A stretch of DNA of 64,000 bases from the NCBI GenBank assembly GCA_012841375.1, contig DUUV01000028.1, positions 563-64,562 of the forward strand, in the 5' to 3' direction. The position numbers were made by a program, and so were the translations under genes. The notes beneath the pieces are model-generated. The model was given only the letters and a program-made list of their open reading frames with translations. It had not been told where the DNA came from and did no database searches. The DNA comes from Candidatus Fermentithermobacillaceae bacterium. Lineage in GTDB: Bacteria; Bacillota; Sulfobacillia; Fermentithermobacillales; Fermentithermobacillaceae. This document shows, piece after piece, positions 3,415 through 18,931 of the stretch (positions within the stretch are counted from its first letter, which is position 1; each line of letters starts with the position of its first letter).

Positions 3415-5301
3415 GTGAAAACCCGAGCAGCCATTTCCGGCGATCTCCGACGGGTCACGGGGCTGATAGAAAGCCCCTTCAAGACATACCTGCAACTGAG
3501 CCTCCTCTTAGTGACTGAATCGCTGGAGCCGGCGTTAGGCGCTTTCGCCTTGAAAGGTCTTCTGGATGCCTTCGTGGCGTTGAATGCTTCTCTTGTTTGG
3601 CGGGCGGCACTTGTCTTCTTTGGAGTAACGGTCTTTGGCGCGCTCATTGGAGGCACGGGCGTTTCGATGCGGGTCCGTCTCGTGGAGGAACTCGCCCGCA
3701 GGCAACGGGAGGCCTTGATGCGCTCCGGGGTCGAGATGCCCCTCCTTCAGTTCGAGAAACTCCCCCGCGGCGACTTGGCATCCAGATTGACATCTGACAT
3801 CACTGTCTCGTCACGAGTCATTACTGAATGCTATCTCCTGGCCAGGGTCGCATTGCGCGCATTCGCTGCGGCGGCGTACATGCTCACCCTGAATTGGCAA
3901 GTCGCCCTGGCTTGCGCCCTCACGGGCCCGGTTACACTGGTCGTCAGCGGAACCATTTCCAGACCTATCAACAAGCGGTCTATGGAGCTCCAGACGGCTA
4001 TCGGCCAAGTCTCGTCCGAAGCCCTCAATACGCTGGAGGGTGTCCAGGCTATCAAGTCCTTCCTGGCAGAGGACTCGGCTGAAAAACGCTTTCTCACAAG
4101 AGCGTCTGCTGTCAGGCTGGCGGCCGTGAGGATGTCCTCGGTGTTCGCGTTGAACGCCGCTTGGATGGGCACAGGTTCCCTCTTGCCATTTGCCGTCACG
4201 TTTGGGTACGGCGGTTACATGGCTGTCCAAGGCAGGCTTACCATCGGAGGGATACTGGCGCTGGTCAGCCTCTGCAACAACCTGGGCTGGCCGTTGGCGG
4301 GCATGGGACGGTCTCTGGCCAACGTTCGAAGGAGTCTCGGGGCTTTCCGCCGTGTCACTGAGATCCTGGACCTTCCGCGGGATGTGGACCCGGTCCCCGC
4401 TGACGGGCATCCTGAGCAGCATGTCATCGAGAGCGAATGGGACCTTCCGCCGGATGCGAACCTGGCCCCGGTTGAAGGGGCAGCGATCACAGAGCGCGCA
4501 GATTCACTGAGTAGAGCCGGAACCACCGACCCGTCCGCCGACGCCATACCAGAACCAGAAGACGCAGGCCTTTCGATAACCGTTCGCGGCCTTTCCTTTG
4601 AGTATATCCAAGGCACCCCTGTTCTGAAGGACATCTCCATTGAGATACCGGCCGGGTCTCTGGTTGTTCTGGCGGGGAAGAGCGGCTGCGGCAAGAGCAC
4701 TCTCATCAAGGTCCTCGCCGGGCTCTACCGCCCGTATCCCGGCACGGTGTTCATCGGAGACCGGGACCTTCACTATGAGGCGAGCTGGGCTCGCACTGTG
4801 ACTCTCTACCTGCCCCAAGAGCCCTTCCTCTTTTCAGGTTCCCTGCGGGAAAATCTTCAGTTGGCCAATGCAGAAGCCACCGAAGCCGAACTGCGACAAG
4901 CATTGTCCATCGCCGACGCCCTGGAGTTTGTTGAGCGGGATGAGGGTGGCCTGGACCGCAAAGTATCCGAGAGGGGGAGCTCATTCTCAGGTGGGGAGAG
5001 GCAGCGTCTATCCATTGCCCGGACGCTTCTCAAGAGAGGCGCGGTGCTGTTGGTCGATGAGCCGACGTCCTCGGTGGACAGAGAGTCCGAGGAGCGGATC
5101 TGGTCCAGTCTCCTCCTGGCAATGAAGGGAAAGACCTGTGTAGTCGCAACTCACCGGTTGGAGATAGCCGCGAGAGCCGACCTTGTTTTTGTGATGGACG
5201 GTGGCCGCATTGTCGAGTATGGAACCCATGCGGATCTTCATATGCCCGGGACCGTCTACAGCAGTCTCGTCGGCGAAACGGGAGGGGTGATGGCCGGATG
5301 A
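3415..5301 (+). CDS. ABC exporter subunit (TMD+NBD, MsbA/multidrug type)
   Basis: Hydrophobic N-terminal domain, Walker A GKSGCGKST, signature FSGGERQR, Walker B LLVDEPT, H-loop ATHR. Confidence 0.92.
   Translation: MKTRAAISGDLRRVTGLIESPFKTYLQLSLLLVTESLEPALGAFALKGLLDAFVALNASLVWRAALVFFGVTVFGALIGGTGVSMRVRLVEELARRQREALMRSGVEMPLLQFEKLPRGDLASRLTSDITVSSRVITECYLLARVALRAFAAAAYMLTLNWQVALACALTGPVTLVVSGTISRPINKRSMELQTAIGQVSSEALNTLEGVQAIKSFLAEDSAEKRFLTRASAVRLAAVRMSSVFALNAAWMGTGSLLPFAVTFGYGGYMAVQGRLTIGGILALVSLCNNLGWPLAGMGRSLANVRRSLGAFRRVTEILDLPRDVDPVPADGHPEQHVIESEWDLPPDANLAPVEGAAITERADSLSRAGTTDPSADAIPEPEDAGLSITVRGLSFEYIQGTPVLKDISIEIPAGSLVVLAGKSGCGKSTLIKVLAGLYRPYPGTVFIGDRDLHYEASWARTVTLYLPQEPFLFSGSLRENLQLANAEATEAELRQALSIADALEFVERDEGGLDRKVSERGSSFSGGERQRLSIARTLLKRGAVLLVDEPTSSVDRESEERIWSSLLLAMKGKTCVVATHRLEIAARADLVFVMDGGRIVEYGTHADLHMPGTVYSSLVGETGGVMAG
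4368..4482 (+). repeat. Degenerate direct repeat with 72-bp period in the TMD-NBD linker
   Basis: ggaccttccgcgggatgtggacccggtcccc at 4368 versus ggaccttccgccggatgcgaacctggcccc at 4440 (DLPRDVDPVP / DLPPDANLAP). Confidence 0.7.
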
Positions 5302-7229
5302 GTCCGAAGCCGAGCGCAAGAAACGACAAAGATGGTGGAGACGACAAAGACGGCAGGAAAGGTAAAATCGAGACAAGCGACAGAGCCCGTGAAGAAGGGG
5401 CTCGGACCGAGCGTTCCCGCGAAAAGCGGCCGGACTCTTGGAGGGATGTCCGGGATATGCTGTCGTTCCTCGGCGCCTACTGGCCCCTCTATATCGTCTG
5501 CATATTCCTTAACATATGCGCCAACCTGGCTTACGGCCCGGGCATAGCCTACTCACTGGCGGTTCTCACTGATTCCATCACCGCCAAAGAGATCTCCCTG
5601 GTGTGGAGAGCGGCTCGACTCCTCGGGCTCATGGCCGCAGCCATGGGTGCCTTGGCGGGCATATCTCACTTCCTGTCTAATTGGACGCTGGAGGCCGTCG
5701 CCCTAAACATCCGGAGGAAGGTAATGTCCAGGGCGCTAAGGGCGAACCTGTCATACTGGCACATCCAGAAGACCGGGGATACCGTATCATTGCTCGTAAA
5801 TGATACAGAGACTGCCAAGCAGGGCCTGAGCCTGCTTCACGGTCTTGTGGGAGATATCGGACTCATTGTGTCGTGCGTGGTGACCCTCATCGCCTGGGGG
5901 CCCGGCACCGCCTTGGCCCTCTTCGTCCTGGCGGCCCTCTGCATGTTTGTGGGAGCCCGTTTCGCCGAGCCGGTCGGGAAGGTGAGCGATGAGTACCAGG
6001 CTGAGACCGCGAATACCACTTCGGCCGCCACGGAGCTCTTGAGCGGGATAGCAGTGGTGAAGTCGCTGAAGGCGGAACCCATCGCCCTTGGGAGGGCTCT
6101 CAGGACTGTCGACCGGCTGTACGGGGTCGCCCGGAAGAGAGGCCGGCTGCTGGGACTTCAATACGGAGCCACCGCCATCACCCAAGGTCTTTCCTCCGTG
6201 GGCGTGCTCATCGTGGCCGCATTCTTGTCTCTACGAGGCCGGATGACCGTGGGGCAGGCCGTAGGCGTCATGCAGCTCGCGTCTCTCCCACTCAACGTGT
6301 TCGGTTCACTCGGCGAGAGCTGGGCGACGATCCAGCAGAACCTGGCGGCCAGCAGGCGGCTCAAGGTTTCCATGGAGATACCGGTTGAGCGGGACGCCGG
6401 AGACGCCCTCGCGGAGGGATCTCCTGACGCCCGTGGCGCCCTTCAACCCGACGCACGCGCTGCGCTTCATCCTGACCCCCGCATGGCGCCTCGACCTGAA
6501 GTTCAGACCGGGCTTCAGCAATCCCATGCCCACACCGCGCTTCACCCGGAGGATACAGACTTCGTGCTTGAGTTCGACTCGGTGACGTTTGGCTATGACC
6601 GGGAGAGGGCCGTCTTGGACGGAGCGTGCTTTCGGATCAGAGAGCGGCAGAAGGCAGCGCTGGTGGGCCCGAGCGGCGGCGGCAAGACATCGGTCTTGAG
6701 GCTCATCCAGGGCTTCTACGAACCGTGGGAAGGTACCATCAAGCTCCGGGGGAAGGATGTTTCGAGCATACCGCTCAAGGAGCTCAGGAGCCAGGTGGGC
6801 ATTGTCCCACAAGAGCCTTTCATCTTCCCGGGGACGGTCCGCGAGAACATCGCCATGGGAAATGAGCAGGCTTCTCTGGACGAGATCATCCGCGCGGCCA
6901 AACTCGCCAATGCCCATGAGTTCATCGCCGGACTGCCCGAAGGGTATGACACGGTGCTGGACGAACGGGGAGGCAACCTCTCCGGAGGACAGAAGCAACG
7001 GATCTGCCTTGCCAGGGCGTTTCTCAAAGACGCCGGTCTGTTGCTCTTAGATGAGCCGACGTCGTCGGTTGACGCCGAGTCCGAGGCCCTTATCCGTCAA
7101 TCGGTGGATGAGTACGCGTCCCGCAAGACGGTGCTGGCTGTGTCCCACACCGAGGGGGTTGTTGAAGGAGCCGGTGTAGTCTTGTCGGTCGCAGACGGCA
7201 AGGTGACCGAGACGCGACGACGAGACTGA
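5298..7229 (+). CDS. ABC exporter subunit (TMD+NBD), probable heterodimer partner of 3415..5301
   Basis: ATGA overlap with the upstream gene, Walker A GPSGGGKT, signature LSGGQKQR, Walker B LLLDEPT. Confidence 0.92.
   Translation: MSPKPSARNDKDGGDDKDGRKGKIETSDRAREEGARTERSREKRPDSWRDVRDMLSFLGAYWPLYIVCIFLNICANLAYGPGIAYSLAVLTDSITAKEISLVWRAARLLGLMAAAMGALAGISHFLSNWTLEAVALNIRRKVMSRALRANLSYWHIQKTGDTVSLLVNDTETAKQGLSLLHGLVGDIGLIVSCVVTLIAWGPGTALALFVLAALCMFVGARFAEPVGKVSDEYQAETANTTSAATELLSGIAVVKSLKAEPIALGRALRTVDRLYGVARKRGRLLGLQYGATAITQGLSSVGVLIVAAFLSLRGRMTVGQAVGVMQLASLPLNVFGSLGESWATIQQNLAASRRLKVSMEIPVERDAGDALAEGSPDARGALQPDARAALHPDPRMAPRPEVQTGLQQSHAHTALHPEDTDFVLEFDSVTFGYDRERAVLDGACFRIRERQKAALVGPSGGGKTSVLRLIQGFYEPWEGTIKLRGKDVSSIPLKELRSQVGIVPQEPFIFPGTVRENIAMGNEQASLDEIIRAAKLANAHEFIAGLPEGYDTVLDERGGNLSGGQKQRICLARAFLKDAGLLLLDEPTSSVDAESEALIRQSVDEYASRKTVLAVSHTEGVVEGAGVVLSVADGKVTETRRRD
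6423..6551 (+). repeat. 24-bp degenerate tandem repeat (8-aa units) in the TMD-NBD linker
   Basis: PDARGALQ / PDARAALH / PDPRMAPR / PEVQTGLQ / QSHAHTALH / PED, with units starting at 6423, 6447, 6471, 6495 and 6519. Confidence 0.75.
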
Positions 7230-7344: not shown

Positions 7345-9678
7345 CTACACGATCGCCCACAGCCCGGAGATGATTCCGGTGATGAAGAGCGTCGCGACCC
7401 AGTCTCTCCACGTGATCGCGAACGAGACCCGGTAAGTCCTGTCGCGGTAGAGCCCGAACGCCCGGCCCTCCATGGAGATCGTGAGGTTGTCCACCTTCTC
7501 CAGAGCCGATATCACCAGGGGCATGACTGTGTACTTGACGTAACGGGGGAGACTCTTTAGGCCGGCGGAGCCCACGTCAATTCCCTTGCTAAGCTGGGCG
7601 TTCCTCACCTGAACCATCTCGTATCCGAAGATCGGGATAAACCTTAAGGCCACAACCAGCATAAAGCCGTACCGGTAGGGGAGTCCTGCCTGCATTAGGG
7701 AGTAGGCCAGGTGGTTCGGGTCGGTGGTGACGACAAAAAGGAAACTGGTGAAGATGACGTTCAGGAACCGAAGGGCCAGGCCAATGCCTCTCACCAATCC
7801 CTGAGACCACACGACCACACTGACCCGGCCCAGAGAAAACAAAGGGATAGGCGTGCCTTGCTTGAAGAAGAACATCTGGGCCAGCAATACGGTGGCGGAA
7901 AACACCGTCAGGACCCTCAGCCTTCTGCGGAAGCGGTCGAACCCGGCACCGCTGAGAGCCGCCCCCAGCACCAGGGAGGCGGACAGCACGGCTTGGCGGG
8001 ATATCCCGGATGCGGAGAAAGCGAGCACGGTGATGAGGACGAGCAAGAAAGCCTTGCACAGCGGGTTCAACGAGTGGAGGAACGAATGGCCCGGCTGAAA
8101 GCCTAACACTCTGGGCGATATACCCGGACGAACACCGGCAGCGTTGTCAGCCGTGCGCCGGGAAGACTTGCTCCCAAGGCGTCCGTCCTCATCGAACTCG
8201 CTCTCGGAGTGGGCAGCGAACGGGGTGAACTCGTGCCTTCCCATCTCCCGGAGCGCTTCAAACGCCCGATCGGTGTCCGCATCGACCGCTACGCATCCGT
8301 CCTGGAGGAAAATGACTCTTGAACACATCGCTTGGACCAGCTCCGGATCATGGCAGACCATAAGGGTCGCCCCGCCTTGCCGGACGTGGGCCGCCAGTTC
8401 CTCCGCAATTGCACTCACCATATCAGGGTCCTGTCCCGTGAACGGTTCGTCCAGGAGCAGGAGCTTCCGGTCGTACACCAGGAGCGACGTCATGTTGAGG
8501 CGCTTCTTTTGCCCCATGCTGAGAGAGAAGGGACTTCTGTCCTCAAGCCCGGCCAGCCCGAACCTCTCCGTTATCTCCTGAAGTCTGCCGGAAGGGCTCT
8601 TTCCCAACCCTTCGGCCGTAAGCATGATCTCGCGGCTGACTGTGCTTTCAGACACCTGGTGATTAGGGTTCTGAAATGAGAGGCCCACAAACCCTGCCCG
8701 TTCCCGGACCGGCGTCCTCACAGCCTCTGCTCCGCCCAACGCGATAGAGCCGCCCGTCGGCTCAATGAGGCCCATGATCGTAGAAAGCAGGGTTGACTTG
8801 CCGCTCCCGTTATCGCCCATGAGAGCCACGATCTCGCCCGGCCGGATCTCGAGTGAGACATCCTGGAGCACTTGCCGCTGTCCGTACCCAGCGCACAGGT
8901 CCCTAATGGATAGAAGCGGCGGTCCCTGGCTTCCGGTCTCGTCTTTCGTCCGGACAATCCTCCCGGCAATCCGCCTGGCCGCCTGAACGAGGGGCCTGCC
9001 TTGCTCCTCGAAGACGTTCCCGTTCTCTACTCGTATCAGTCTGTCTGACAAGCGGGCGAGATGTCTCAGCCGGTGTTCCACGACCATTATCGCTGTGCCC
9101 GTCTTTTTCAGGGCGGATAGCGTGTCCAACACCGCCCGGGTACCTGACGGGTCGAGATTGGCCGTGGGTTCGTCCAAGACGATGACCTTGGGACGGAGGA
9201 CCAAAATGGAGGCTATGGCCACACGCTGCTTCTCACCGCCGGACAGGGAATAGACGTCTCTCTGGGCAAGGTGCTCCGCTCGGCAGGTCTTGAGCGCTTC
9301 CATGACCCTGCCCTCAATCTCCCGGGCAGGGACCTTCAGGTTTTCCAGGCCGAAGGCCACCTCGTCCATCACTGTCAGGGTGCAGAGCTGGGCTTCGGGA
9401 TCCTGGCGCACCATCCCGATGGTGCCCAAGAGTTGAACAGGGGAATGTGAGCGGGTATCCAGACCGCCGATCAAGACTTCGCCCGTCATCTCGCCGGCGA
9501 TGGAGTGGGGGATAAACCCTGCCATGGCCAAGCAAAGGGTGGACTTGCCGCCTCCGCTTGGCCCGGTTACGGTCGTGAACGACCCTTCGGACAGGGAGAG
9601 CGACACCCCCGACAGAGCGTGCCGTGTGCCGCCCCTGTAACGGAAGGACAAGTCCCTTATGTCTACCGCAACGTTCAC
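7345..9678 (-). CDS. Single-chain ECF module: two ATPase domains fused to an EcfT transmembrane domain
   Basis: NBD1 GPSGGGKST / LSGGEKQR / VLDEPT. NBD2 GDNGSGKST / LSMGQKKR / LLDEPF. C-terminal EcfT motifs LHSLNP..K, ALRFIP, NAQLSKG and SMEGRAF. Confidence 0.9.
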   Translation of the reverse strand: MNVAVDIRDLSFRYRGGTRHALSGVSLSLSEGSFTTVTGPSGGGKSTLCLAMAGFIPHSIAGEMTGEVLIGGLDTRSHSPVQLLGTIGMVRQDPEAQLCTLTVMDEVAFGLENLKVPAREIEGRVMEALKTCRAEHLAQRDVYSLSGGEKQRVAIASILVLRPKVIVLDEPTANLDPSGTRAVLDTLSALKKTGTAIMVVEHRLRHLARLSDRLIRVENGNVFEEQGRPLVQAARRIAGRIVRTKDETGSQGPPLLSIRDLCAGYGQRQVLQDVSLEIRPGEIVALMGDNGSGKSTLLSTIMGLIEPTGGSIALGGAEAVRTPVRERAGFVGLSFQNPNHQVSESTVSREIMLTAEGLGKSPSGRLQEITERFGLAGLEDRSPFSLSMGQKKRLNMTSLLVYDRKLLLLDEPFTGQDPDMVSAIAEELAAHVRQGGATLMVCHDPELVQAMCSRVIFLQDGCVAVDADTDRAFEALREMGRHEFTPFAAHSESEFDEDGRLGSKSSRRTADNAAGVRPGISPRVLGFQPGHSFLHSLNPLCKAFLLVLITVLAFSASGISRQAVLSASLVLGAALSGAGFDRFRRRLRVLTVFSATVLLAQMFFFKQGTPIPLFSLGRVSVVVWSQGLVRGIGLALRFLNVIFTSFLFVVTTDPNHLAYSLMQAGLPYRYGFMLVVALRFIPIFGYEMVQVRNAQLSKGIDVGSAGLKSLPRYVKYTVMPLVISALEKVDNLTISMEGRAFGLYRDRTYRVSFAITWRDWVATLFITGIISGLWAIV

Positions 9679-10709
9679 TTCACTACCAACTTGCTGACCT
9701 TCTGCACCCAGTATCCACCTTCGTAGTTTCCGGCAACCAGCCGCAAGGTATCTCCTTCTTCGATGATGATCATCCGGTCATCTGCCATCACGTCGGCAAG
9801 ATCAAAGTCAACCTGATAGCCATCGGATGCCACCACCGTCACGGTCTTTGACCCGGGCTTCGGGCCGGCCTCGCTCAAGATATCAGTGACAAGCACCCCC
9901 GTGTACTCCCTGGGGGCGACATAAGTGACCTGTCCTTTGAGCTCGGCAACTACGGTGACCTTTTCCAGCCTGGAGATGTCCACGGCGAGAGGTTTCTCCA
10001 CGTTGCCCTCCACGCCCAGCGCCGCGCCTTTCCAAGGGGCCTCATAGACATTAGTGAAGTAGTATCCTGCACCCACGGCCAACGCTACAGCCAAGGCCAG
10101 GGTGACATAACGGACTGACTTGGGCGAGGATGGGACCGAGACCGGGGCTTCCTGCATCATGCTGGGACGCACTTGGTGGACCGTTGTGAGCACCGAGTAA
10201 CCGAAGCCGCCGGCAAACAAAGCTCCCGACACCAGCGACAGAAAGGTGATGAACGCCAGGTAGCCCCATGGAGCCCCCGAGAAATACACCAACTGGAACA
10301 CAATGACGTTGGCGGCGGAGGCGATGGCGCCCCCTGTGATATAGGAGAGGACGCTGCGCCTTCTAGTACCCGCAAGCAAGAGGTCGACCACCAAACCCTG
10401 TACCAGTGACACTATGACGATGACAGACCCGTGGGTGCTGCCTGTAAGGAGTTCCACGGTGCCTTTGACCAACCCGCAAAGCGAACCTGCGCCGAAGGAC
10501 CGCACCAGTCCCGCCGCCAGCACTATCCAGAAGACATGGAGCCCGGATACGAACTGGCCCGCCCCGAACGGTACGCCGAGCAAGTTGTTCAGGAGAGTGC
10601 CAAGATAGCCCACATAGGTGCTCATGACCCCTCCCAGCCCGCTCAGGACTGCTATGATCAGGAGGTCTCTGGTGGAAAACCTGTACGGTTTCGCGGGTGC
10701 TGCTCTCAC
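9675..10709 (-). CDS. ECF S-component (YkoE-like) fused through an extra TM helix to an Oxidored_molyb-like (SUOX-fold) domain
   Basis: FSTRDLLIIAVL...GLHVFWIVLAAGLVR..GAG...VELLTG...SLVQGLVVDL fits the S-component pattern. The tail carries YTGV, ASDGY, LRLV and WVQKVSKLVV. GTGA overlaps on both sides. Confidence 0.78.
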   Translation of the reverse strand: MRAAPAKPYRFSTRDLLIIAVLSGLGGVMSTYVGYLGTLLNNLLGVPFGAGQFVSGLHVFWIVLAAGLVRSFGAGSLCGLVKGTVELLTGSTHGSVIVIVSLVQGLVVDLLLAGTRRRSVLSYITGGAIASAANVIVFQLVYFSGAPWGYLAFITFLSLVSGALFAGGFGYSVLTTVHQVRPSMMQEAPVSVPSSPKSVRYVTLALAVALAVGAGYYFTNVYEAPWKGAALGVEGNVEKPLAVDISRLEKVTVVAELKGQVTYVAPREYTGVLVTDILSEAGPKPGSKTVTVVASDGYQVDFDLADVMADDRMIIIEEGDTLRLVAGNYEGGYWVQKVSKLVVK

Positions 10710-12358
10710 CTCGGTCTCACCTCCAGTCTGACCACGTTCTTAACCCATCTGGCGCCGGCCGATTCATATATGCCCCAGCCTTGACCTTCGACTGACGTAC
10801 CGGCGCAATCATCATTGCTGTAGACTCCGTCCGGCGGAAAGAAAGCGATCCTGTAGCCTTCCTGCCAATCGGGCGGCGTCTTTCCATCCGCGCTGAGGGC
10901 CACTATCATGTCACCCTGGATCTCAAGCCATGAGTCGTCGGGGAACACGTTCCGGTACGAGAATTCCTGAGCGTACCCGTCGGACGCGTAAACCACCAGG
11001 GTATCGGACTCTTCCATCCCGCCTACAAGGTCCAGGAGCACTCTCACCGGCACTCCACGATACAGCCTCTCGGCGCTCAGGTTCTCATAGCGGTTTTGAT
11101 ACTTGACCTTTGCTTCCCGCGTTTCGAGTCCCGAAAGCTCTTCCAGTGAGAGGAGCATCTCTCCGCCTTTGCCGCTGAGCACCAGATCATCGCTTGCGTA
11201 ACCGGCAGGCTTCTCGACAGGGGTGACCGTTATCCCGGCGGGTGTGGCCTCTACCACGGCAAAGTGATGGAAGCCGCCATCCTGGGGAGAGGCGTAGAGA
11301 CCAGCGCCGCCTCCACCGCTGGTAACGAACGTCACGCCTTCGACTGCGTTCTGGCTGAACATGTGGACGTGGCCGTTGAAGACGGCTTTGACCACGTTCT
11401 CAGGGTCGGTCAACACATCCAAAAGGGAAGCGGCCTCAACCTGGTCCAAGAAGCAGTGGTCTTCGCCCCGGGGGTCAAAGGGCGGCACGTGCATGAACAC
11501 GAGCTTGGGTGACCCCGACGCCCCCAGCGTCTCACGAAGCCAGGAAAGCCCCTCGGGACCGAGTCCCAGGGAGGAGGTATCCAGGAAAACCACTCTCCAT
11601 CCCGCGTAGTCAAAGTAGCGGTTGGGCTGACCAAATCTCGCCTGAAAGAGATCACTGTCAGAATCCCTGACATCGTGGTTTCCCGGAACCGCGAAGCACG
11701 GGACGCCAAGAGCCGAGAGCGCCTCATCGAACGCCTCGAACTCCCGCGAAGCGCCCGATGGGGTCATATCGCCCAGGTGCACAAGGAATTCCGCTTCGGA
11801 TTCGTTGATCAGTGGGACCATACTGCTAAAAACATTGTTTCGTCCCTGGGTGTCGCCTATGACCGCGAAGCGCAGCGGCTCTGTCTCTTGAGGCGTGGTT
11901 TCAAGGATGATCCTCCCGGAGCCCCTTTTCACCAAAACTTCCATGGAGGTGGGGGAGAGCCTCTTGGTTTCGATCACGGGCTCCGCGCCGGGTCGGTTCG
12001 AGCCTGCCTCAGGGCCATGAACCTCTATCGAGACAGCATCCGCCCTGATGTTCAATACCGATATGGTGAACGTCCGCCTGTCCGACGGGTCTCTCTCCAG
12101 ATCGACGCGAAGCGTCGTGGACAGCGCCTTCACAACGGCACTATCACGGGTCACACTTTGGGCCAAGCCTCCTGTCACGGACAGTTTGGGATCGGGGAGA
12201 TCCTTGCAGCCCGAGAGGCCGGCGGCCAAGACAAGGATAGCCAGGACCGTCCAAGCCGCCACCAGGGGCTGCGCCCCGTAGAACCGCCTGAAAGGACTCA
12301 AGCGAGTCCGGCGAGGTCTCACGGCTCGCGCCCGCGATGCTTTGGGAAAGATGGTCAT
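10706..12358 (-). CDS. Lipoprotein: calcineurin-like metallophosphoesterase fused to a C-terminal Oxidored_molyb-like domain
   Basis: Lipobox LSGC. Phosphoesterase motifs GDTQG, HLGD, GNHD, FMH and GHVH. C-terminal YRGVPV, ASDGY, YRIAF and WVKNVVRLEV. Confidence 0.82.
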   Translation of the reverse strand: MTIFPKASRARAVRPRRTRLSPFRRFYGAQPLVAAWTVLAILVLAAGLSGCKDLPDPKLSVTGGLAQSVTRDSAVVKALSTTLRVDLERDPSDRRTFTISVLNIRADAVSIEVHGPEAGSNRPGAEPVIETKRLSPTSMEVLVKRGSGRIILETTPQETEPLRFAVIGDTQGRNNVFSSMVPLINESEAEFLVHLGDMTPSGASREFEAFDEALSALGVPCFAVPGNHDVRDSDSDLFQARFGQPNRYFDYAGWRVVFLDTSSLGLGPEGLSWLRETLGASGSPKLVFMHVPPFDPRGEDHCFLDQVEAASLLDVLTDPENVVKAVFNGHVHMFSQNAVEGVTFVTSGGGGAGLYASPQDGGFHHFAVVEATPAGITVTPVEKPAGYASDDLVLSGKGGEMLLSLEELSGLETREAKVKYQNRYENLSAERLYRGVPVRVLLDLVGGMEESDTLVVYASDGYAQEFSYRNVFPDDSWLEIQGDMIVALSADGKTPPDWQEGYRIAFFPPDGVYSNDDCAGTSVEGQGWGIYESAGARWVKNVVRLEVRPR

Positions 12359-12448
12359 CCGGGATCACCTTCTCGCGACAGGACGGCCGCCGCATGGGAG
12401 TCTCCTTGACTCAAGGCCCTGGAGCGGCCGCCTGTGCGGTTATTGTCC

Positions 12449-13465
12449 TTATTCCGGCAGGTTCACCAGTCTGATCTCGGCAATCTGCTTAACCCCGTGC
12501 TTCTTGCTGGGCAAGCCGGAACCGACCAATCTGAGGGGGCCTTCATCCTCGCCCAGAGGTTTCCCGTCGACTTTGTAGGCAACGATGATGTCCGCGTTGT
12601 AGGCAACCTCCTGGGAAGTGAATTCGACAGTCATGCCGTCTGCCGCGACCACCTCAATGGTGTAGCCCTTGTCTGCCAGACCTTTGTTGAAGAGGTAATG
12701 CCCTCCTTCGGCATCGCCACCGTCGAACATGGATATGACGAGCCAGAGGGGCACCCCCTCATAGACGATAGCGTCGCCTTCTTTGGTCGTCGTCTCAAAT
12801 GTCGCGGCAGGATGGGGAGTATCGGGGCATTCGGCCATGCTTTCGAAGCTCGAGCGGTCCAGCCCAACCGACTCCACTCCGGTCAGGGCGATCTCCCAAT
12901 CCGACAGCCCCTCAACCACAGTCAACTCGGCGACGGACTTTACCCAGAAGTGTCCGTCAGAGACGGCTCCATCGGGCGAAGAGAACCCGAGCCTGGGAAG
13001 CTCGGACGAGAATAGATCGCCGTCGCTGGATGTGATCAACATGGTGTCGAGGTCTGTCACCTTGAGGGCCTGGCCGTCTTCACCGTAGACCATGAGAAGT
13101 CCCTTGACCTGCTCATATGTGAGGGTCATCGTGTAGCCGTCGGATGCGGTGACGGCCAGAGCGTCGTCCTCGGTGAAGCCGCCTGCCTTCTCAAGGACTT
13201 CGTCGATGCTTACGCCCGAGAACGTGTCGGGACCGACAATGGTGCCCGTGGTCTTTATGAAACCACCTTTGCCGTCTTTAACCTCAAGAGAAGAAAGGTC
13301 GATTTCGTGGGAAGTACCGTCCCTGGCGACAACCCGAACAGAGTAGGACGGCGATGCCGGGGGATCGGGCGGCGTGGGATTGGCCTCACCGCAGGCCGCC
13401 AGAAGAACCATGGACAACACGAGGGCTAAGCCCAAGAAAACCGGTGTTCTTCGCTTCAAGCTCAC
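12449..13465 (-). CDS. Lipoprotein with two tandem Oxidored_molyb-like (SUOX-fold) domains
   Basis: GGAGG RBS before GTG 13465 and lipobox LAAC. Domain 1: FSGV, ASDGY, PRLG, WVKSVAEL. Domain 2: YEGVPL, AADG, GPLRLV, GVKQIAEI. Confidence 0.8.
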   Translation of the reverse strand: MSLKRRTPVFLGLALVLSMVLLAACGEANPTPPDPPASPSYSVRVVARDGTSHEIDLSSLEVKDGKGGFIKTTGTIVGPDTFSGVSIDEVLEKAGGFTEDDALAVTASDGYTMTLTYEQVKGLLMVYGEDGQALKVTDLDTMLITSSDGDLFSSELPRLGFSSPDGAVSDGHFWVKSVAELTVVEGLSDWEIALTGVESVGLDRSSFESMAECPDTPHPAATFETTTKEGDAIVYEGVPLWLVISMFDGGDAEGGHYLFNKGLADKGYTIEVVAADGMTVEFTSQEVAYNADIIVAYKVDGKPLGEDEGPLRLVGSGLPSKKHGVKQIAEIRLVNLPE

Positions 13466-13534
13466 ATACACCTCCGTGTGAAAGTAACCGATCTTTGATA
13501 GGAGCATGGGGCCATTGTGTAGTAGCCGGTAGGG

Positions 13535-13564
13535 TCATCCATACGGAGGCACACCAATACGCAT
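13535..13564 (-). other. Possible 9-codon leader ORF (MRIGVPPYG*) behind the riboswitch Shine-Dalgarno
   Basis: GGAAAGGAG-tggttcaa-ATG CGT ATT GGT GTG CCT CCG TAT GGA TGA on the minus strand. Confidence 0.35.
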
Positions 13565-13571
13565 TTGAACC

Positions 13572-13667
13572 ACTCCTTTCCAAATACGGGAGGCCCAGGC
13601 GTTTCCGCCAAGACCCTATCGGCCGCCCCGCCGTGGCCCTACTGCTTTAGGCAAGACGGCTCGGAGT
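13572..13667 (-). ncRNA. Moco/Tuco riboswitch (Moco RNA motif), P3-less variant
   Basis: ACUCCGA-GCCGUCUUGC-CUAA..-GCGGGGCGGC-CGAU-AGGGU..GGCG GAAA CGCC..GCCUCCCGUAUUUGGAAAGGAGU. P1 ACUCC/GGAGU, a fully paired 10-bp P2, a GNRA-capped P4, and the hallmark CCUCCCGUAUUUGGAAAGG 3' tract. Confidence 0.88.
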
Positions 13668-13803
13668 CGCGCCTCATTGTTTCGACACCGGGAGCGCGAA
13701 ATCCTTCGGAGGAAAGCGGGTTCATGCTGTGCAGCGTACCGGTGATTACCGTCATGTAGCAGGGCTGTATTAGCCGTTCGCCCCGCCGGCCTCCGCCCAA
13801 ACT

Positions 13804-14307
13804 CTAGGGAGCGCCGTCGTCTCCGTGTAACCCAGGGAACGCTCCCGCGCGGTACCTGCCATCCTCTCTCAAGATGCTGAGAAGAGCTTTCTCGGCGTCG
13901 CTCAGTGTCAGGCAGTCTTCGGGAAGGGGGAGGAGCTCGGGGATCTCCAACACCTCTTCGCCGTCCCGGGTCGCCTTGCGCGCGAGGCCCAAGTCAACCA
14001 GCAGTTTGACTATTCCCCGGAGGCTCTTCCGGTACGGTTTCCCGTACTCTTCGGCGAACCGCCGTTCCACGTCCTCTTTGGCGCAAGCCTGTCTCGGGTC
14101 GGGTGTGTAGTTCTTGGCCTCGGCGTGCCACCTTTCGAGCCATTTCCACATTTCCTCCCCCTTGCAGCCCGACCAGCCCAGAATGGCAATGGATGTGAAG
14201 GTCACCCCGGCTTCGGCCGGAAGGTGCCGGTGCCACCCGAGCCCAAGAAATTGGCGCACTTGGGGCAAAGACGTCCACATGGTAGCGTTTTTCTCCTCTT
14301 CGTACAT
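13804..14307 (-). CDS. Hypothetical protein (weak resemblance to DUF6042 or winged-helix proteins)
   Basis: GAGGTG RBS before ATG 14307. Contains GWHRHLP, LVDLGL and IPELLPLPEDCL. Confidence 0.55.
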   Translation of the reverse strand: MYEEEKNATMWTSLPQVRQFLGLGWHRHLPAEAGVTFTSIAILGWSGCKGEEMWKWLERWHAEAKNYTPDPRQACAKEDVERRFAEEYGKPYRKSLRGIVKLLVDLGLARKATRDGEEVLEIPELLPLPEDCLTLSDAEKALLSILREDGRYRAGAFPGLHGDDGAP

Positions 14308-14505
14308 CCTGATCACCTCAGAGGACCCGTTCGCCGCACCCAATGGGAATTCCTGCCAATTAAGACAGAAAGTTGTCGGGGAAGCTGTCTTTTCGCGGTG
14401 CCGTGGACTTACGCAGGACTGAGCCCGGTCCGGTCAGAATCCATCCTTGGATGCGGGAGGCCATCTTCCTCTGAGTGCGCATAACGTCTAGTAGGCATCT
14501 CTTAA

Positions 14506-15528
14506 ATGCTTGGAGGGGAGACGCCCGACGTGAATCCTGACCTGAAATTCGATGTACAGGCTGATACAGAGCCCGACATGAAGCCTGATGAGAAGGCCGA
14601 TGCGCAGCCCGACGAGAAGCCGGATGTGGTCACCGGAAATGGAGAGCCGCTCGGTGCAGGAGGCTTCAGGGAGACCGCCCTCAGGGTCCTAAGGCTCATG
14701 TTTGGGGAGTCGAGGGGATCGAGATGGGCCGGCTTCTGCGTCTTGGTCTCAATACCTGTCATCCTTTACCCATATCGTGTTGGACCCAGGCTCGCGTCGA
14801 TCGCCGGGTGTGTGGCTCTGGGATGCACTGCGTTCCTTCAACTAAAGAGGCGACTGGTCTACATAGCTCTGGTCATCCTGACGCTTTTTGTCTCTATTGG
14901 TCTGAACGGCGCGCAAGTGCTACTCCGTGAGGCCACTGAGACTCCCGAAGTCGCCATACCGGTGATATCCGTTTCGGTTGTCCCGGGTGGCGATTTCTTT
15001 CATACAAGAATCACACCGGAACGTTGTATGCAGGCGGCCGTATGCTTCTATAAGGACGGTGTCGCAGTAGTTGCCGCCCACTCCTGCGAATTGTCCCCGG
15101 GAGTCTTGGATAACCACACCCTTCTCAATGACGTTCATGTCGAGGGTAGGGTCAACGTGATTGAGGACAACTCTTGGGGATTCGCGGTTAGTCCGCTCTA
15201 TCCCCCGGTTGACCGTGAAGAGATGCCTCTTGGAAATGCCCACGAAGTCGCTGTAGGTGAACCCGCTCAATGCCTGCCGCCCGACTCGGAGCCTTTTGAT
15301 GTGGAGATTGCCGGTTGGGCGATGCGGGAAGACAGGCAGTATATCGTCCTCGTCAGCCCGCGGAGGATAACCGAAGGCATGAGCGGCACGCCTGTGCTCC
15401 AGGGTGGCCGGATAATCGGTTTCCTTGCCGCCAAGTGGGCGTTTCCCAGCCGTGCCCCCTATATCGCGTATGCGTCTCCGGCGGCGGCTGTCTATGACGC
15501 GTTCCGAGATCACCTGGGGGGCCGGTAG
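14506..15528 (+). CDS. Membrane-anchored trypsin-fold serine peptidase related to the SpoIVB/S55 catalytic domain
   Basis: Hydrophobic segments around residues 75-135, VAAHS (candidate catalytic His) and GMSGTPVLQGGRIIG (compare SpoIVB GMSGSP..Q.G..IG). The true start may be GTG 14530 after GGAGGGG. Confidence 0.55.
   Translation: MLGGETPDVNPDLKFDVQADTEPDMKPDEKADAQPDEKPDVVTGNGEPLGAGGFRETALRVLRLMFGESRGSRWAGFCVLVSIPVILYPYRVGPRLASIAGCVALGCTAFLQLKRRLVYIALVILTLFVSIGLNGAQVLLREATETPEVAIPVISVSVVPGGDFFHTRITPERCMQAAVCFYKDGVAVVAAHSCELSPGVLDNHTLLNDVHVEGRVNVIEDNSWGFAVSPLYPPVDREEMPLGNAHEVAVGEPAQCLPPDSEPFDVEIAGWAMREDRQYIVLVSPRRITEGMSGTPVLQGGRIIGFLAAKWAFPSRAPYIAYASPAAAVYDAFRDHLGGR
14527..14634 (+). repeat. 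Nine 12-bp degenerate tandem units encoding D-x-x-x repeats
   Basis: DVNP DLKF DVQA DTEP DMKP DEKA DAQP DEKP DVVT. Confidence 0.75.
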
Positions 15529-15679
15529 GGTCGTCCTTCAGGTAAGATCTGCCGTCTTCCGCAGCCTTCGCTTCCTTGCCGAATGCCCTCGGCGATGCGA
15601 AGGACAAGCGATTTTCGCTGTTTTACCTGGAATTTCCCCAAGATCGGCACTGGCATACTATCTTTCGGAGGTGCCGCCG

Positions 15680-16573
15680 CTGAACTTTCTTTCGGTAGCC
15701 TCATCGAAGACGCCTGACTCAATACGCCACATGCTCGGGCGCGAGATCGAGGCATGGGCCAAGAAAGGCGTCAAGGTGTCGGTCCGGGAGTCGCTCAAAG
15801 GCGAACTCCTGGTTTTCCACTGTGAGATCCAGGGGTCCACAGACTCCGTCCGGCAGGAGGTACTTCGAGAAATCAAGGATTCGGTAGCAAACGAGTTGTC
15901 GCACATCATCATTGACGAGTACGAAGCGCTCCTCGTCAATCGCTTGGTCGACGAAAACTACGCCTATCTGTCCTCCAGAGACCGTGGCGTTATAAAACGC
16001 AAGGTTGCTGCGGCGCTCGACGGAAAATCACGACAAGGTTCCGGCTTTCGGGACGGAGCGGAGCGAAGCCGCAGAAAGAGCAGGGTATGGGCCAGGTTGG
16101 CCGAGTATCTGGAGAAGGAAAATGAGATCGTGCTGGAGGGGTTCATCACCTTCAGGCTCAAGGAGTACTTGGAGGGGCTTTTCGACACAGTGGAGGAGGT
16201 GGCCGAGGATCACCTTACTGAGCGGGAGTACCGTGAGTTCCTGCGACTCTTGAGGCATTTTATGGGGAGTCAGAGAAACAAGACCGTCGAGGTCAATGTG
16301 GTCCGGGGCCAAGACGGCTACACTCTCTACGACGACAAGATGGAGCCGGTTGAGGGGGAAGTCGGCAGGTTTCTGGCCAGGCCGCCGCAGGGCATGGACC
16401 TTGGCGTCGACGACATCATAGTAAGCGCGGTGGTGACCCTTGCTCCCGAACGGGTCATATGGCATGGGTCGAAGAATGATTCCCCCTGCTACGACTTGAT
16501 ACATGATCTGTTTGAGGATAATGTGGTGTCTTGCCCCGGTTGCCCGCTGGAGAAAACTCCCGCTCCCACTTGA
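15680..16573 (+). CDS. ytxC: Putative sporulation protein YtxC
   Basis: LEGFITFRLKEY, EREYREFLRLLRHF, DIIVSAVVTLAPERV and a C-terminal CPGC, in the conserved position upstream of thrS. GGAGGT RBS precedes an in-frame CTG at 15680. Confidence 0.8.
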   Translation: MNFLSVASSKTPDSIRHMLGREIEAWAKKGVKVSVRESLKGELLVFHCEIQGSTDSVRQEVLREIKDSVANELSHIIIDEYEALLVNRLVDENYAYLSSRDRGVIKRKVAAALDGKSRQGSGFRDGAERSRRKSRVWARLAEYLEKENEIVLEGFITFRLKEYLEGLFDTVEEVAEDHLTEREYREFLRLLRHFMGSQRNKTVEVNVVRGQDGYTLYDDKMEPVEGEVGRFLARPPQGMDLGVDDIIVSAVVTLAPERVIWHGSKNDSPCYDLIHDLFEDNVVSCPGCPLEKTPAPT

Positions 16574-16619
16574 TCCCGGACTCGGCGGGGGGGTATAATC
16601 CTCAAAACTCATAGTTCAG

Positions 16620-16927
16620 GCTGTGAAGAGGAACGTACCGCGGGTCCGCTGGCAAGAGAGGGATGGCCGAAGGCTGAGAGCCGCCCCGGCGAACGCGGGA
16701 AACACCACCTCGGAGCCTCCGGAGGATCCCGGTTCACTGATGTTGGAGGCCTCAAGGCCGTGAAATCATCGAGGGAGCCCGGGTAACTCCGGCGAAAACC
16801 AAGGCGCGATAAAGCCTGGAAAGAGCCGCCCGCTCACAGGTCTTTGCCGGGTAGCGGACAGAAGAGCGGCTGAACAAGGGTGGAACCGCGGAACCCCGCC
16901 CCTTTACGGGACGGGGTTTTTGATTTG
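16620..16927 (+). promoter_or_regulatory. T-box riboswitch (Thr)
   Basis: AGAGA and GCTGAG stem I boxes, specifier ACC at 16704-16706, T-box GGTGGAACCGCG at 16879, then a terminator hairpin with T-tract. Confidence 0.92.
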
Positions 16928-16984
16928 GGTTCACGGCACACGTAGGTCAGAGTTCGGACGGAAGAGATAGAGGAGGAGATATTA

Positions 16985-18931
16985 GTGGCGGAAGAAAGGC
17001 ACGAGGTGAAGTGGGAAGATAAGTCCTGCTCCTTGGAAGGCGGCAGCACCTTCCTGGACGTCAAGAAGGCCTTCGGCTGGAAGAACGACGTCCTGATGGT
17101 GGGAGAAGGTGACGACGCCAGAGAGCTCAGGGCCAGAGTGACCGGCAGTTGCACGGTCGTGCCGCTCACATTTGACGACGAGCGGGCCAGATGGGCGCTC
17201 CGCCACACCGCGGCGCACATCCTCGCTCAGGCCGTCAAGCGGCTGCGTCCAGACGCGAAACTGGCCATCGGGCCCGCCATAGAAGACGGGTTCTACTACG
17301 ACTTTGACGTGAAGACCCCCTTCACGCCCGAGGACCTGGAGAAGATCGAGGCGGAGATGAAGAAGATAGTCTCTGAGAACTCGCCTGTCGTAAGAGAGGA
17401 GGTCGACAGGGAGAAGGCCAGGGAGCTTTTCCGGGAGCAGGGCGAGCTCTACAAGGTGGAACTCGTAGAAGAACTGCCCGAAGGCGAACCCATCTCCCTC
17501 TACCGCCAAGGCGAGTTCGTGGACCTCTGCGCCGGGCCTCACGTGGCCTCAACGGGCATGGTGAAAGCGTTCAAGCTCCTCAGTGTTGCCGGCGCTTATT
17601 GGCGTGGGGACGAGAGACTGCCCATGCTCCAGAGGATTTACGGAACGGCCTTTATGAAGGCGGAGGACCTTCAGGCCCACCTGGACCGGCTTGAGGAGAT
17701 CAAGAAGCGCGACCACAGGAGGCTGGCCAAAGACCTGGACCTTTTCAGCATCCAGGAGGAGGGAGGCCCAGGGCTTGTATACTGGCACGCCAAGGGAGCG
17801 CTGATCCGCGAGCTCATCGAGGACTTCTGGAGGGAGGAACACAGAAAACGCGGGTACGACATCGTGTACTCTCCGCACATAGCCAAACTGGATCTTTGGA
17901 AAACGTCGGGACACTGGAACTGGTACAAGGAGAGCATGTACTCGCCCATGGCGGTTGAGGAAGTGGAGTACCTGCTCAAGCCCATGAACTGTCCGTTCCA
18001 CATCTTGATGTTTAAGAATGCGACCCGAAGTTACCGCGATCTGCCCATTAGAATGGGCGAACTGGGCACGGTCTACCGTTTTGAGCGCTCGGGAGTACTG
18101 CACGGCGCCCTTCGGGTCCGCGGGTTCACGCAGGACGACGCCCACCTGTTTTGCACGCCCGAACAGCTGGAAGAAGAGATCATCGGCGTGCTCGAGCTTA
18201 CCCAGTACATGCTCAAAGTGTTTGGGTACAGCGAGTACTACTGTATGCTCTCCGTCCGCGATCCGGAAGACAAGGGCAAGTACGCCGGAGATGACGACAT
18301 CTGGGAGATGGGGGAAGCTGCCCTGGCGTCGGCGCTCAAGCGGAAGAATCTCGAGTACAAGATCGACCCGGGTGAGGCCAAGTTCTATGGTCCTGCGATC
18401 GACATCAAGATCAAGGACGCCCTGGGCAGGCTCTGGCAAGGACCTACCATCCAGGCTGACTTCAACCTTCCAGAGCGGTTCGATATCAGCTATATCGGCG
18501 AGGACGGGGCAAAGCACCGCCCGGTCATGATCCACAGGACGGTGCTGGGCAGCATGGAGAGGTTCGTGGCGGGTCTCGTGGAGCACTATGCGGGAGCGTT
18601 CCCGCTCTGGCTGTCTCCTACCCAGGTCCAGGTGATCCCCGTCTCAGAGAAGCAGGCTGACTATGCCACGAAGGTCTCGGAGCGGCTTAAGGAAAAGGGG
18701 TTCAGAGTAGTCTCAGACTTGGGGTCTGAGAAGATGGGGTACAAGATAAGGCAGGCCCAGATGCAAAAGGTACCTTACATGCTTGTGGTGGGCGGCAGAG
18801 AAGCCGAGAACGGCACGGTCTCGGTGCGCCACCGTGCCCTGGGAGACCTAGGTTCGTTTGCCTTGGACGAGTTCATGGACAAAGCGGCCCACGAGGCGAG
18901 CACCAAGGCCCTTGAGCCGGCCATGAAGTGA
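16985..18931 (+). CDS. thrS: Threonine--tRNA ligase
   Basis: RHTAAH, DLCAGPH, MLQRIYGTAF, KRDHR, KPMNCP, RVRGFTQDDAH and a C-terminal anticodon-binding domain. Confidence 0.98.
   Translation: MAEERHEVKWEDKSCSLEGGSTFLDVKKAFGWKNDVLMVGEGDDARELRARVTGSCTVVPLTFDDERARWALRHTAAHILAQAVKRLRPDAKLAIGPAIEDGFYYDFDVKTPFTPEDLEKIEAEMKKIVSENSPVVREEVDREKARELFREQGELYKVELVEELPEGEPISLYRQGEFVDLCAGPHVASTGMVKAFKLLSVAGAYWRGDERLPMLQRIYGTAFMKAEDLQAHLDRLEEIKKRDHRRLAKDLDLFSIQEEGGPGLVYWHAKGALIRELIEDFWREEHRKRGYDIVYSPHIAKLDLWKTSGHWNWYKESMYSPMAVEEVEYLLKPMNCPFHILMFKNATRSYRDLPIRMGELGTVYRFERSGVLHGALRVRGFTQDDAHLFCTPEQLEEEIIGVLELTQYMLKVFGYSEYYCMLSVRDPEDKGKYAGDDDIWEMGEAALASALKRKNLEYKIDPGEAKFYGPAIDIKIKDALGRLWQGPTIQADFNLPERFDISYIGEDGAKHRPVMIHRTVLGSMERFVAGLVEHYAGAFPLWLSPTQVQVIPVSEKQADYATKVSERLKEKGFRVVSDLGSEKMGYKIRQAQMQKVPYMLVVGGREAENGTVSVRHRALGDLGSFALDEFMDKAAHEASTKALEPAMK

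Follow-up and report, generated by a model that had tools for sequence, protein, structure and literature searches.

We analysed a 64-kb stretch of DNA (the window) from Candidatus Fermentithermobacillaceae bacterium (GCA_012841375.1, contig DUUV01000028.1, forward positions 563-64,562). The host genome is a metagenome-assembled genome (MAG) of 2.37 Mb in 157 contigs, 97.8% complete and 1.4% contaminated. In the window, a riboswitch of the molybdenum/tungsten cofactor (Moco/Tuco) type is followed by four open reading frames (ORFs), g1 to g4, all on the minus strand. They encode two surface lipoproteins, one of them with a phosphoesterase domain, and the parts of an energy-coupling factor (ECF) transporter. 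An earlier note on this DNA, made from the letters alone, had described four co-oriented genes of which the last three overlap, and the ORFs confirmed this layout: g2/g3 and g3/g4 share 4 nt each, and g1 and g2 are separated by a 90-nt gap. The extent given there (7345-13667) fits the genes but is too short for the aptamer, which extends 11 nt past 13667.

The presence of a Moco-type riboswitch, also proposed in the earlier note, was borne out by a search with Rfam models. Using cmscan, the RF01055 aptamer was found at 13557-13678 (minus strand) with 79.5 bits (gathering score: 36; E 1.3×10−17) over the full model (positions 1-135), and the positions of the P3 hairpin were deleted in the alignment. 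When this aptamer was aligned with 10 aptamers from homologous loci, all 11 were P3-less. Moco-motif representatives of the P3-less form have been correlated with tungsten-cofactor metabolism (Regulski et al. 2008, PMC2408646). RF01055 was the single Rfam match above gathering score in the 64-kb window, where no riboswitch for thiamine pyrophosphate (TPP) or tetrahydrofolate (THF) was detected, and the copy on this operon was the only one in the 2.37-Mb genome.

The leader of g1 (13466-13556, minus strand) is a candidate expression platform. The conserved 3' strand of the aptamer, GGAAAGGAG, looks like a ribosome-binding site, and in the aptamer alignment the start codon of several relatives directly follows it. 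In the window, a nine-codon mini-ORF (MRIGVPPYG; 13564-13535, minus strand) follows instead, beginning within the aptamer 3' end, 8 nt after the conserved strand and ahead of the true start of g1. This short frame may be left over from the direct arrangement known from relatives, with the ribosome-binding site in P1, or may have arisen by chance. The likely true start of g1 is a GTG at 13465, 5 nt after GGAGG. In the minimum-free-energy fold, the GCCUCCGU segment (about 13549-13542), a possible anti-Shine-Dalgarno element, pairs with the Shine-Dalgarno region ACGGAGGU of g1 (about 13478-13470), although the z-score of the fold (1.03) is non-significant. No intrinsic terminator was found after the aptamer. 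Translational repression of the operon by the cofactor, via this candidate helix that sequesters the Shine-Dalgarno region, is likely.

The first gene, g1 (12449-13507, minus strand), encodes a surface lipoprotein. Read from the GTG at 13465, the protein has a typical lipoprotein signal, MSLKRRTPVFLGLALVLSMVLLAAC, with the lipobox LLAAC. The Oxidored_molyb family (PF00174) matched it in two stretches (39.1 bits, above cut-off). The product of g2 (10706-12358, minus strand) is a second surface lipoprotein (lipobox GLSGC), in which a beta-rich N-terminal region is followed by a binuclear metallophosphoesterase and, at the C-terminus, by a SUOX-like domain. The latter gave a weak PF00174 match and was aligned by hhalign to the profile of the C-terminal domain of g3 and its relatives with 95% probability (E 1.9×10−8); domain 1 of g1 reached 92% against the same domain. 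In g3, PF00174 scored 28.4 bits, again above cut-off. Judged by these profile comparisons, the four SUOX-like copies of the earlier note (two in g1, one each in g2 and g3) are all real.

The product of g3 (9675-10709, minus strand) is an ECF S component of the YkoE type (ABC_cobalt, PF09819; 65 bits). The structure of YkoE (5EDL) was recovered both by a PDB sequence search (E 1.8×10−14) and by Foldseek [E 1.9×10−6; TM-score over the target (TMt) 0.76]. In an AlphaFold2 (AF2) model (mean predicted confidence, pLDDT, 79), the six helices of the S component are followed by a seventh (residues 197-220) and then by a C-terminal domain rich in beta structure. Because of the additional transmembrane helix, this domain (residues about 230-344) is expected to face outward. 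The last gene, g4 (7345-9678, minus strand), encodes a fusion of EcfA, EcfA' and EcfT, with two PF00005 domains (191.8 bits) and one CbiQ/EcfT domain (PF02361; 98.7 bits); the ECF ATPase models TIGR04521 and TIGR04520 of NCBIfam also matched. An S component with a fused SUOX copy next to an ATPase-ATPase-EcfT protein is what the earlier note had read here. With a six-helix S fold, two ATPase domains and an EcfT/CbiQ protein encoded together with the S gene, the system has the features of a Group I ECF transporter, in which g4 is the dedicated energising module. Neither a receptor of the periplasmic-binding-protein fold for oxyanions nor a BPD_transp_1 permease, as in TupABC, ModABC or WtpABC, was found in g1-g4 with Pfam models.

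The extracytoplasmic domain of g3 was compared with known structures. SoxC (2XTS) was matched in the PDB sequence search with g3, and the C-terminal part of the full model found SoxC, SorA, YedY and PruR proteins by Foldseek. The domain was also modelled on its own with AF2, using 26 sequences that span several phyla (pLDDT 90.7). The 21 best PDB matches of this predicted structure were only SUOX-fold cofactor binders or PruR. SoxC, SorA, YedY (including the W-substituted form) and nitrate reductase gave TM-scores over the query (TMq) of 0.73-0.79, and the PruR structures (7KOS, 7KOM and 7RKB) gave TMq 0.63-0.68, with TMt 0.56-0.59 across the whole PruR chain. In the 26-domain alignment AELxG, YTG, DGY, R, Y, G and WV positions are invariant, and no cysteine is conserved. 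The segment aligned to the Cys-hairpin of SorA has ~18 residues, compared with 37 in SorA. The domains thus have the fold of the SUOX family but not the Mo-ligating cysteine on a long beta-hairpin, and we rejected the possibility that they are catalytic extracellular SUOX enzymes. The cofactor- or pterin-binding fold that the earlier note had claimed for them is in agreement with both PF00174 and the Foldseek results. A precedent is PruR, a secreted and Cys-less protein with a truncated SUOX fold, which holds free pterins between a tyrosine and a tryptophan (PMC11194511, PMC13259868).

The phosphoesterase domain of g2 belongs to the GpdQ/CpdA/purple-acid-phosphatase-like enzymes. It was matched by Metallophos (PF00149; 58.6 bits) and by the NCBIfam models of the phosphodiesterases SpdA and CpdA, and its closest solved structure by sequence was the phosphodiesterase GpdQ (2DXL). 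Five metallophosphoesterase motifs (GD.QG, GD...SG, GNHD, H.P and GH.H) were at least 90% conserved in 40 homologues. One relative carries a purple-acid-phosphatase-type esterase instead, and in the split-S variants described below an unrelated enzyme of the nucleotide pyrophosphatase/phosphodiesterase (NPP) family (PF01663) takes its place. That a non-homologous enzyme with equivalent chemistry can stand in for the esterase indicates that the system has to cleave a phosphodiester or pyrophosphate bond outside the cell. The lipoprotein phosphoesterase with a third SUOX copy that had been proposed for g2 was therefore not only recovered but found to be conserved or functionally substituted. Its most economical role would be the conversion of dinucleotide forms of the cofactor, with guanine (MGD) or cytosine (MCD), into basic cofactor, from which MobA-FdhD, or MobB in the variants, could later rebuild them inside the cell.

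We searched 20 operon-bearing genomes with family models (MoaC, MoaA C-domain, MoaE, MoeA_N, AFOR_N and Molybdopterin), and controls behaved as expected. MoaC, the MoaA C-terminal domain and MoeA_N were each absent from the same 10 of these 20 genomes. The ten comprise the window's genome, those of loci L004, L042 and L078, two from Bipolaricaulota, one Hermodarchaeota MAG and three from Thermoplasmata/Methanobacteriota; among these last three are two archaeal chromosomes that are complete. MoaE was not found in them either, with a weak model that matched only five of the 10 prototrophs. When the window genome was searched by tblastn, none of the MoeA, MoaA, MoaC and MOSC-MoaB queries from Thermovorax or three Firmicute MoaE queries matched, and MoaB/MogA was likewise not found there. 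All ten pathway-less genomes nevertheless keep at least one Mo/W enzyme, of the aldehyde:ferredoxin oxidoreductase (AOR) and/or the Molybdopterin family. AOR (AFOR_N) was detected in 19 of the 20 operon-bearing genomes, with three genes, of the tungsten type, in the window's genome. The co-occurrence with missing moaA and moaC, and with Mo/W enzymes, for which the earlier note had proposed a survey, was thus found.

The window genome has one enzyme of the dimethyl sulfoxide reductase family, an FdhA-type formate dehydrogenase that uses bis-MGD and is of the Cys type with no in-frame TGA (contig C20:216-4356). Directly after it lies a gene for a 459-aa MobA-FdhD fusion, which provides the only Moco-maturation functions found in this genome and indicates that the steps after metal insertion are retained. 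TupA, TupB and MOT1 were not found in the window genome, nor was any oxyanion binding protein of the ModA, TupA or WtpA type; its two SBP_bac_11 matches are PotD and PstS. Six other pathway-less genomes had no SBP_bac_11 match at all. The riboswitch-controlled operon was the only cofactor-related supply system found in the window genome. The missing pathway together with the missing oxyanion transport argues for uptake of finished, metal-loaded cofactor, and against uptake of an oxyanion or a precursor, in this organism.

More than 320 relatives of the fused S component were found in the protein collection, nearly all with PF09819 plus PF00174. A scan with one genome per species gave 175 relatives, and the best 80 loci were analysed. 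These belong to Bacillota (Syntrophomonadaceae, Dethiobacteria, Pelotomaculum, Anoxynatronum and Thermovorax), Bipolaricaulota, Thermoplasmata, other archaea and a few others; cultured carriers are Thermovorax subterraneus and Anoxynatronum spp. The operon is conserved in 80 loci or more, with a nearly constant gene order: SUOX-like multi-domain surface proteins (sometimes with SLH or CHB_HEX anchoring domains), metallophosphoesterase-SUOX, S-SUOX, A-A' and T. The A, A' and T modules follow the S gene, fused or split, wherever the locus is long enough to cover them. In many loci, a g1 homologue opens the series of genes behind the riboswitch. The Rfam model already placed RF01055 upstream of several homologous operons and in their orientation. 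By scanning with a covariance model made from the 11 P3-less aptamers, we found P3-less RF01055 upstream, again in the orientation of the operon, in about 25 bacterial loci with homologues, which substantiates the tie between such operons and Moco riboswitches. In archaeal or Bipolaricaulota loci no aptamer was found, and in many bacterial loci the available upstream sequence is too short for a decision.

We then considered a phylum sample of 401 genomes, in which the fused S component was called at E≤1×10−40 and was present in 25 genomes. AOR was present in 243 genomes (24 with fused S) and MoaC in 276 (18 with fused S). AOR occurred in 24 of the 25 genomes with fused S compared with 219 of the 376 without (Fisher p 6.5×10−5), which again ties the operon to Mo/W enzymes. 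Of the AOR-bearing genomes, 203 also had MoaC (17 with fused S). The remaining 40 (10% of the sample), seven of them with fused S, had AOR but no MoaC, and apparent auxotrophy for the pyranopterin cofactor seems common in the phylum. RF01055 was found in 31 of the 39 genomes of this class that were searched. In those without fused S, the riboswitch usually precedes a g1-like SUOX lipoprotein or a short YkoE-like S component. Most of these 'negatives' therefore carry split-S or other variants behind the riboswitch, and the test on fused S undercounted the system. At least 23 of the 40 genomes have a SUOX-lipoprotein operon led by a Moco riboswitch (seven with fused S, nine with split S and seven with other variants), a figure for which variant operons were counted in this class of genomes only.

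The split-S variant was found behind the RF01055 riboswitch in nine genomes [loci L124 (G120), L126, L128, L129, L132, L134, L135, L136 and L138]. Here the riboswitch is followed by a SUOX-like lipoprotein, a split YkoE-like S component (185-217 aa), an NPP-type phosphodiesterase of ~500 aa (PF01663), a 170-aa Oxidored_molyb protein, A, A', T, a MobB-FeS protein and an APH/RIO-like small kinase. The kinase is a hint that, once imported, a dephosphorylated form might regain its phosphate. In three other genomes (L130, L131 and L133; G059, G144 and G353), the riboswitch leads into genes for a g1-like lipoprotein with two SUOX domains and for a SUOX-like protein of 171 aa. These are followed by a double CN-hydrolase, a binding protein of the NMT1 type together with an ABC permease and ATPase, and a protein resembling ThiF/MoeB. 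As far as gene content tells, this NitT-type variant joins putative pterin-fold receptors to a different class of transporter. Four further genomes have a riboswitch, a SUOX-like lipoprotein and an NPP. Among cofactor prototrophs, the riboswitch-led unit of locus L030 (5834-7860) opens with TupA-type binding proteins, and in L034 (2101-5936) TupA-type proteins, TupB, TupC and a MOT1-family molybdate transporter are encoded ahead of the esterase and the ECF transporter. At these two loci, a single operon unites metal supply with putative cofactor salvage.

Some homologous loci have further neighbours. In Anoxynatronum buryatiense (L010, 13254-17056), the T gene of the operon is closely followed by another P3-less Moco riboswitch, which precedes genes for a 178-aa ECF S component of the PF12822 type, a NifX/Nitro_FeMo-Co-like protein and a Mo enzyme of the xanthine dehydrogenase family. 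A 35%-identical homologue of this PF12822-type S component is encoded, without a riboswitch, elsewhere in the window's host genome (contig C147:5001-5498). The PF12822-type protein may be a second ECF S component for Mo-related cargo, served by a shared module. In a 54%-identical relative (L082-L084; 2651-3602 and 3729-7957), a MotA/ExbB-like gene and DUF2149 are located just upstream of the riboswitch, near large surface proteins, and the operon starts with an 874-aa SLH-anchored SUOX-like protein and ends with a DUF134 protein.

Taken together, the riboswitch, the Mo/W enzymes, the missing pathway, the cofactor-binding fold and the esterase support the import or salvage of a pterin cofactor, as suggested in the earlier note. 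We conclude that the operon is probably a salvage importer for preformed W/Mo-pyranopterin cofactor (Tuco/Moco) that its riboswitch would repress. Whether it is a dedicated importer of the finished, metal-loaded cofactor that lets free-living anaerobic bacteria and archaea drop both the Moco pathway and Mo/W oxyanion transporters is, in our judgement, evenly balanced.

We infer the following course of events from the gene content of the operon and its host. The g1 and g2 lipoproteins and g3 would display four Cys-less cofactor-fold domains on the cell surface, which could capture cofactor released by other cells in anoxic habitats. The phosphodiesterase of g2 would trim nucleotide-conjugated or esterified forms, such as those of the MGD/MCD type, to basic cofactor and nucleoside monophosphate. 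The tethered domain of g3 may then pass the cargo to the YkoE-type S subunit in the membrane, and the EcfA-A'-T fusion would power import by ATP. Inside the cell, the cofactor would go to the three AOR-family enzymes, and MobA-FdhD would make the bis-MGD form for formate dehydrogenase. Plentiful cytoplasmic cofactor would bind the P3-less riboswitch and switch the operon off, probably at translation initiation.

Several observations weigh against this interpretation. Free Moco is chemically labile, which limits the extracellular pool, although all operon hosts are anaerobes. Half of the operon-bearing genomes (10/20) have MoaC, MoaA and MoeA and thus make their own cofactor, and the operon behind TupA/TupBC/MOT1 genes in some prototrophs would also fit a role in metal supply. 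In the phylum sample, fused S alone was not significantly enriched among genomes with AOR but no MoaC (7/40 compared with 17/203; odds ratio 2.3, p 0.086). A genome of the same genus as the host (G337) has AOR, yet MoaC, the fused S component and RF01055 are all missing from it. The host genome itself is a MAG in many contigs (157), MoaE detection was weak even in prototrophs and MoaD was outside the pathway search. Finally, the truncated site of PruR is thought to be too small for Moco (PMC11194511), and the domains of the operon are even shorter than PruR, so that binding of the whole cofactor is not assured.

A metal-free precursor, either cyclic pyranopterin monophosphate (cPMP) or molybdopterin, could be imported instead, with the metal added inside the cell. 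cPMP is the most stable intermediate of the pathway, and the resemblance of g2 to cyclic-nucleotide phosphodiesterases (SpdA/CpdA models), the ThiF/MoeB-like gene of the NitT-type variant and the metal transporters (TupA/TupBC/MOT1) that share the riboswitch operon in prototrophic hosts would all be accounted for. However, the window genome and nine others lack MoeA and cannot insert the metal, and the failure to find MoaE in these ten leaves no conversion of cPMP. The window genome, moreover, is without a recognisable tungstate/molybdate binding protein and has kept only steps that act on metal-loaded cofactor (MobA-FdhD). We regard a precursor as an unlikely cargo. The same genomes bear on the simpler alternative raised in the earlier note, an unusual uptake system for tungstate or molybdate, in which the SUOX-like domains and the binuclear esterase bind the oxyanion as a phosphate analogue and the ECF transporter imports it. 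Binuclear phosphoesterase sites are classically known to bind tungstate and molybdate, and the operon lies directly behind TupA-type binding proteins in L030 and L034. In addition, Moco riboswitches often control modABC/tupABC (PMC2408646). An oxyanion would nevertheless be useless to the ten hosts without MoaA, MoaC and MoeA, which can neither make molybdopterin nor metallate it. The domains have a pterin/cofactor-binding fold rather than a periplasmic-binding-protein or Mop fold, the esterase keeps all its catalytic motifs and can be replaced by an unrelated nucleotide pyrophosphatase, and MobB is found in variant operons. We therefore set oxyanion uptake aside as highly improbable, while keeping it as a minor rival in view of the TupA fusions.

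The cargo might also be something else altogether, such as a pterin other than Moco, thiamine or hydroxymethylpyrimidine (HMP), or an unrelated vitamin; or the surface domains might be redox enzymes that the transporter serves. For relatives of the S component, annotation goes no further than 'ECF transporter S component' or 'thiamin/HMP permease' (JGI), the closest solved relative is YkoE, and PruR-type domains bind monapterin and neopterin rather than Moco (PMC11194511). The riboswitch evidence speaks against the automatic annotation, since the leader is RF01055 and the window has neither a TPP nor a THF riboswitch; the neighbouring genes are also unrelated to thiamine, and the system tracks AOR-bearing genomes. 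On these grounds a thiamine/HMP transporter was rejected. The tie to cofactor auxotrophy, and the presence of MobB and MobA-FdhD, which links the context to Moco maturation, argue against other cargo more generally, and catalysis by the surface domains is made unlikely by the lack of a conserved Mo-ligating cysteine. This group of explanations is, on the whole, very unlikely, and salvage of the preformed pyranopterin cofactor remains the interpretation that we favour.

The genes flanking the operon are ordinary and none appears to be part of it. Upstream of the riboswitch lies a gene for a DUF6042 protein (13804-14343, minus strand), followed at 15425-18931 (plus strand) by genes for a YtxC-like protein and threonyl-tRNA synthetase. 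Downstream of g4, two convergent ABC exporter genes (ABC_membrane plus ABC_tran) are located at 3415-7229 on the plus strand.

To our knowledge, Moco/Tuco is generally regarded as a cofactor that every user synthesises and that is too unstable for exchange. If our interpretation is correct, the pyranopterin cofactor would join the traded microbial vitamins of anoxic communities. This would explain the occurrence of tungsten AORs and formate dehydrogenases without moa/moe genes in many uncultured anaerobes (Thermoplasmata, Bipolaricaulota, relatives of Syntrophomonadaceae and others). It would alter the scoring of Mo/W enzymes in metabolic reconstructions from MAGs and would point to the cofactor as a supplement for cultivation. 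The Cys-less cofactor-fold domains arrayed on the surface would then be receptors, and the fused phosphodiesterase would turn dinucleotide forms into a transportable core. Such domains would also be natural high-affinity binders for a cofactor of medical interest (Moco deficiency).

An ECF vitamin importer under riboswitch control is a known type of system; the cargo class and the accessory parts are undescribed in the literature searched. That literature, which did not take in the ECF survey of Rodionov et al. 2009, contained no bacterial or archaeal importer of Moco/Tuco. The nearest relative by transporter type is YkoEDC, a group I ECF transporter for thiamine/HMP. The S components belong to the same Pfam family (PF09819) and have the same fold, and both operons encode a duplicated ATPase and a CbiQ-type T protein under the control of a cofactor riboswitch. 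Here, however, the riboswitch is of the Moco/Tuco type (RF01055) and not TPP, identity of g3 to YkoE is only about 25%, the S component is extended by a seventh helix and by a SUOX-fold domain outside the membrane, the operon also encodes surface binding lipoproteins and a phosphodiesterase, and A, A' and T are fused in one protein.

The proposed course of events has a parallel in vitamin salvage, where a periplasmic nucleotidase cleaves NAD to nicotinamide mononucleotide or nicotinamide riboside before uptake by PnuC, and FAD and FMN are cleaved to riboflavin. In the present case, too, a surface phosphoesterase would trim the cofactor, a dedicated transporter would import the core and cytoplasmic enzymes would rebuild it; rebuilding would fall to MobA-FdhD, and MobB and the small kinase may share in it in the variants. 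The substrate class differs, the esterase is fused to a putative cargo-binding domain, and trimming is proposed for Moco by analogy.

With PruR, the domains share a small, secreted and non-catalytic Cys-less SUOX fold with a shortened Cys hairpin. Their conserved DGY and C-terminal tryptophan recall, as possible counterparts, N102-x-Y104 and W160 of PruR; in sequence the two are only marginally similar (7KOM, E 0.86). In Proteobacteria, PruR acts in signalling as a protein of one domain, is paired with DcpA and binds monapterin-type pterins. The domains described here, in contrast, form part of larger proteins (a transporter subunit, an esterase and lipoproteins), occur under a Moco/Tuco riboswitch and belong to anaerobic Bacillota and archaea. 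No DcpA-like gene is present in the operon, and no PW motif is conserved at the shortened hairpin in the 26-domain alignment.

In its regulation, the operon resembles the regulons of Moco/Tuco riboswitches such as the E. coli moaABCDE leader (Regulski et al. 2008). The aptamer family is the same (here P3-less), the function would again be cofactor supply, and the 3' GGAAAGGAG strand is placed to serve as, or to influence, a ribosome-binding site. The regulons of that study comprise biosynthesis genes, molybdate/tungstate ABC transporters and cofactor-using enzymes (PMC2408646) but do not include any ECF importer that carries pterin-fold domains. A survey of riboswitch regulons (Sun et al. 2013) likewise placed only Mo/W metal transporters and biosynthesis under the Moco motif.

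In the literature searched, uptake of the cofactor as such is documented for nematodes only: Caenorhabditis elegans takes up dietary, protein-bound Moco, with no transporter identified (PMC7849362, PMC9793310). C. elegans is an animal, and a prokaryotic system of this kind was not found in the literature searched. What the worm and the proposed salvage importer have in common is that life on external Moco, without synthesis, is possible.

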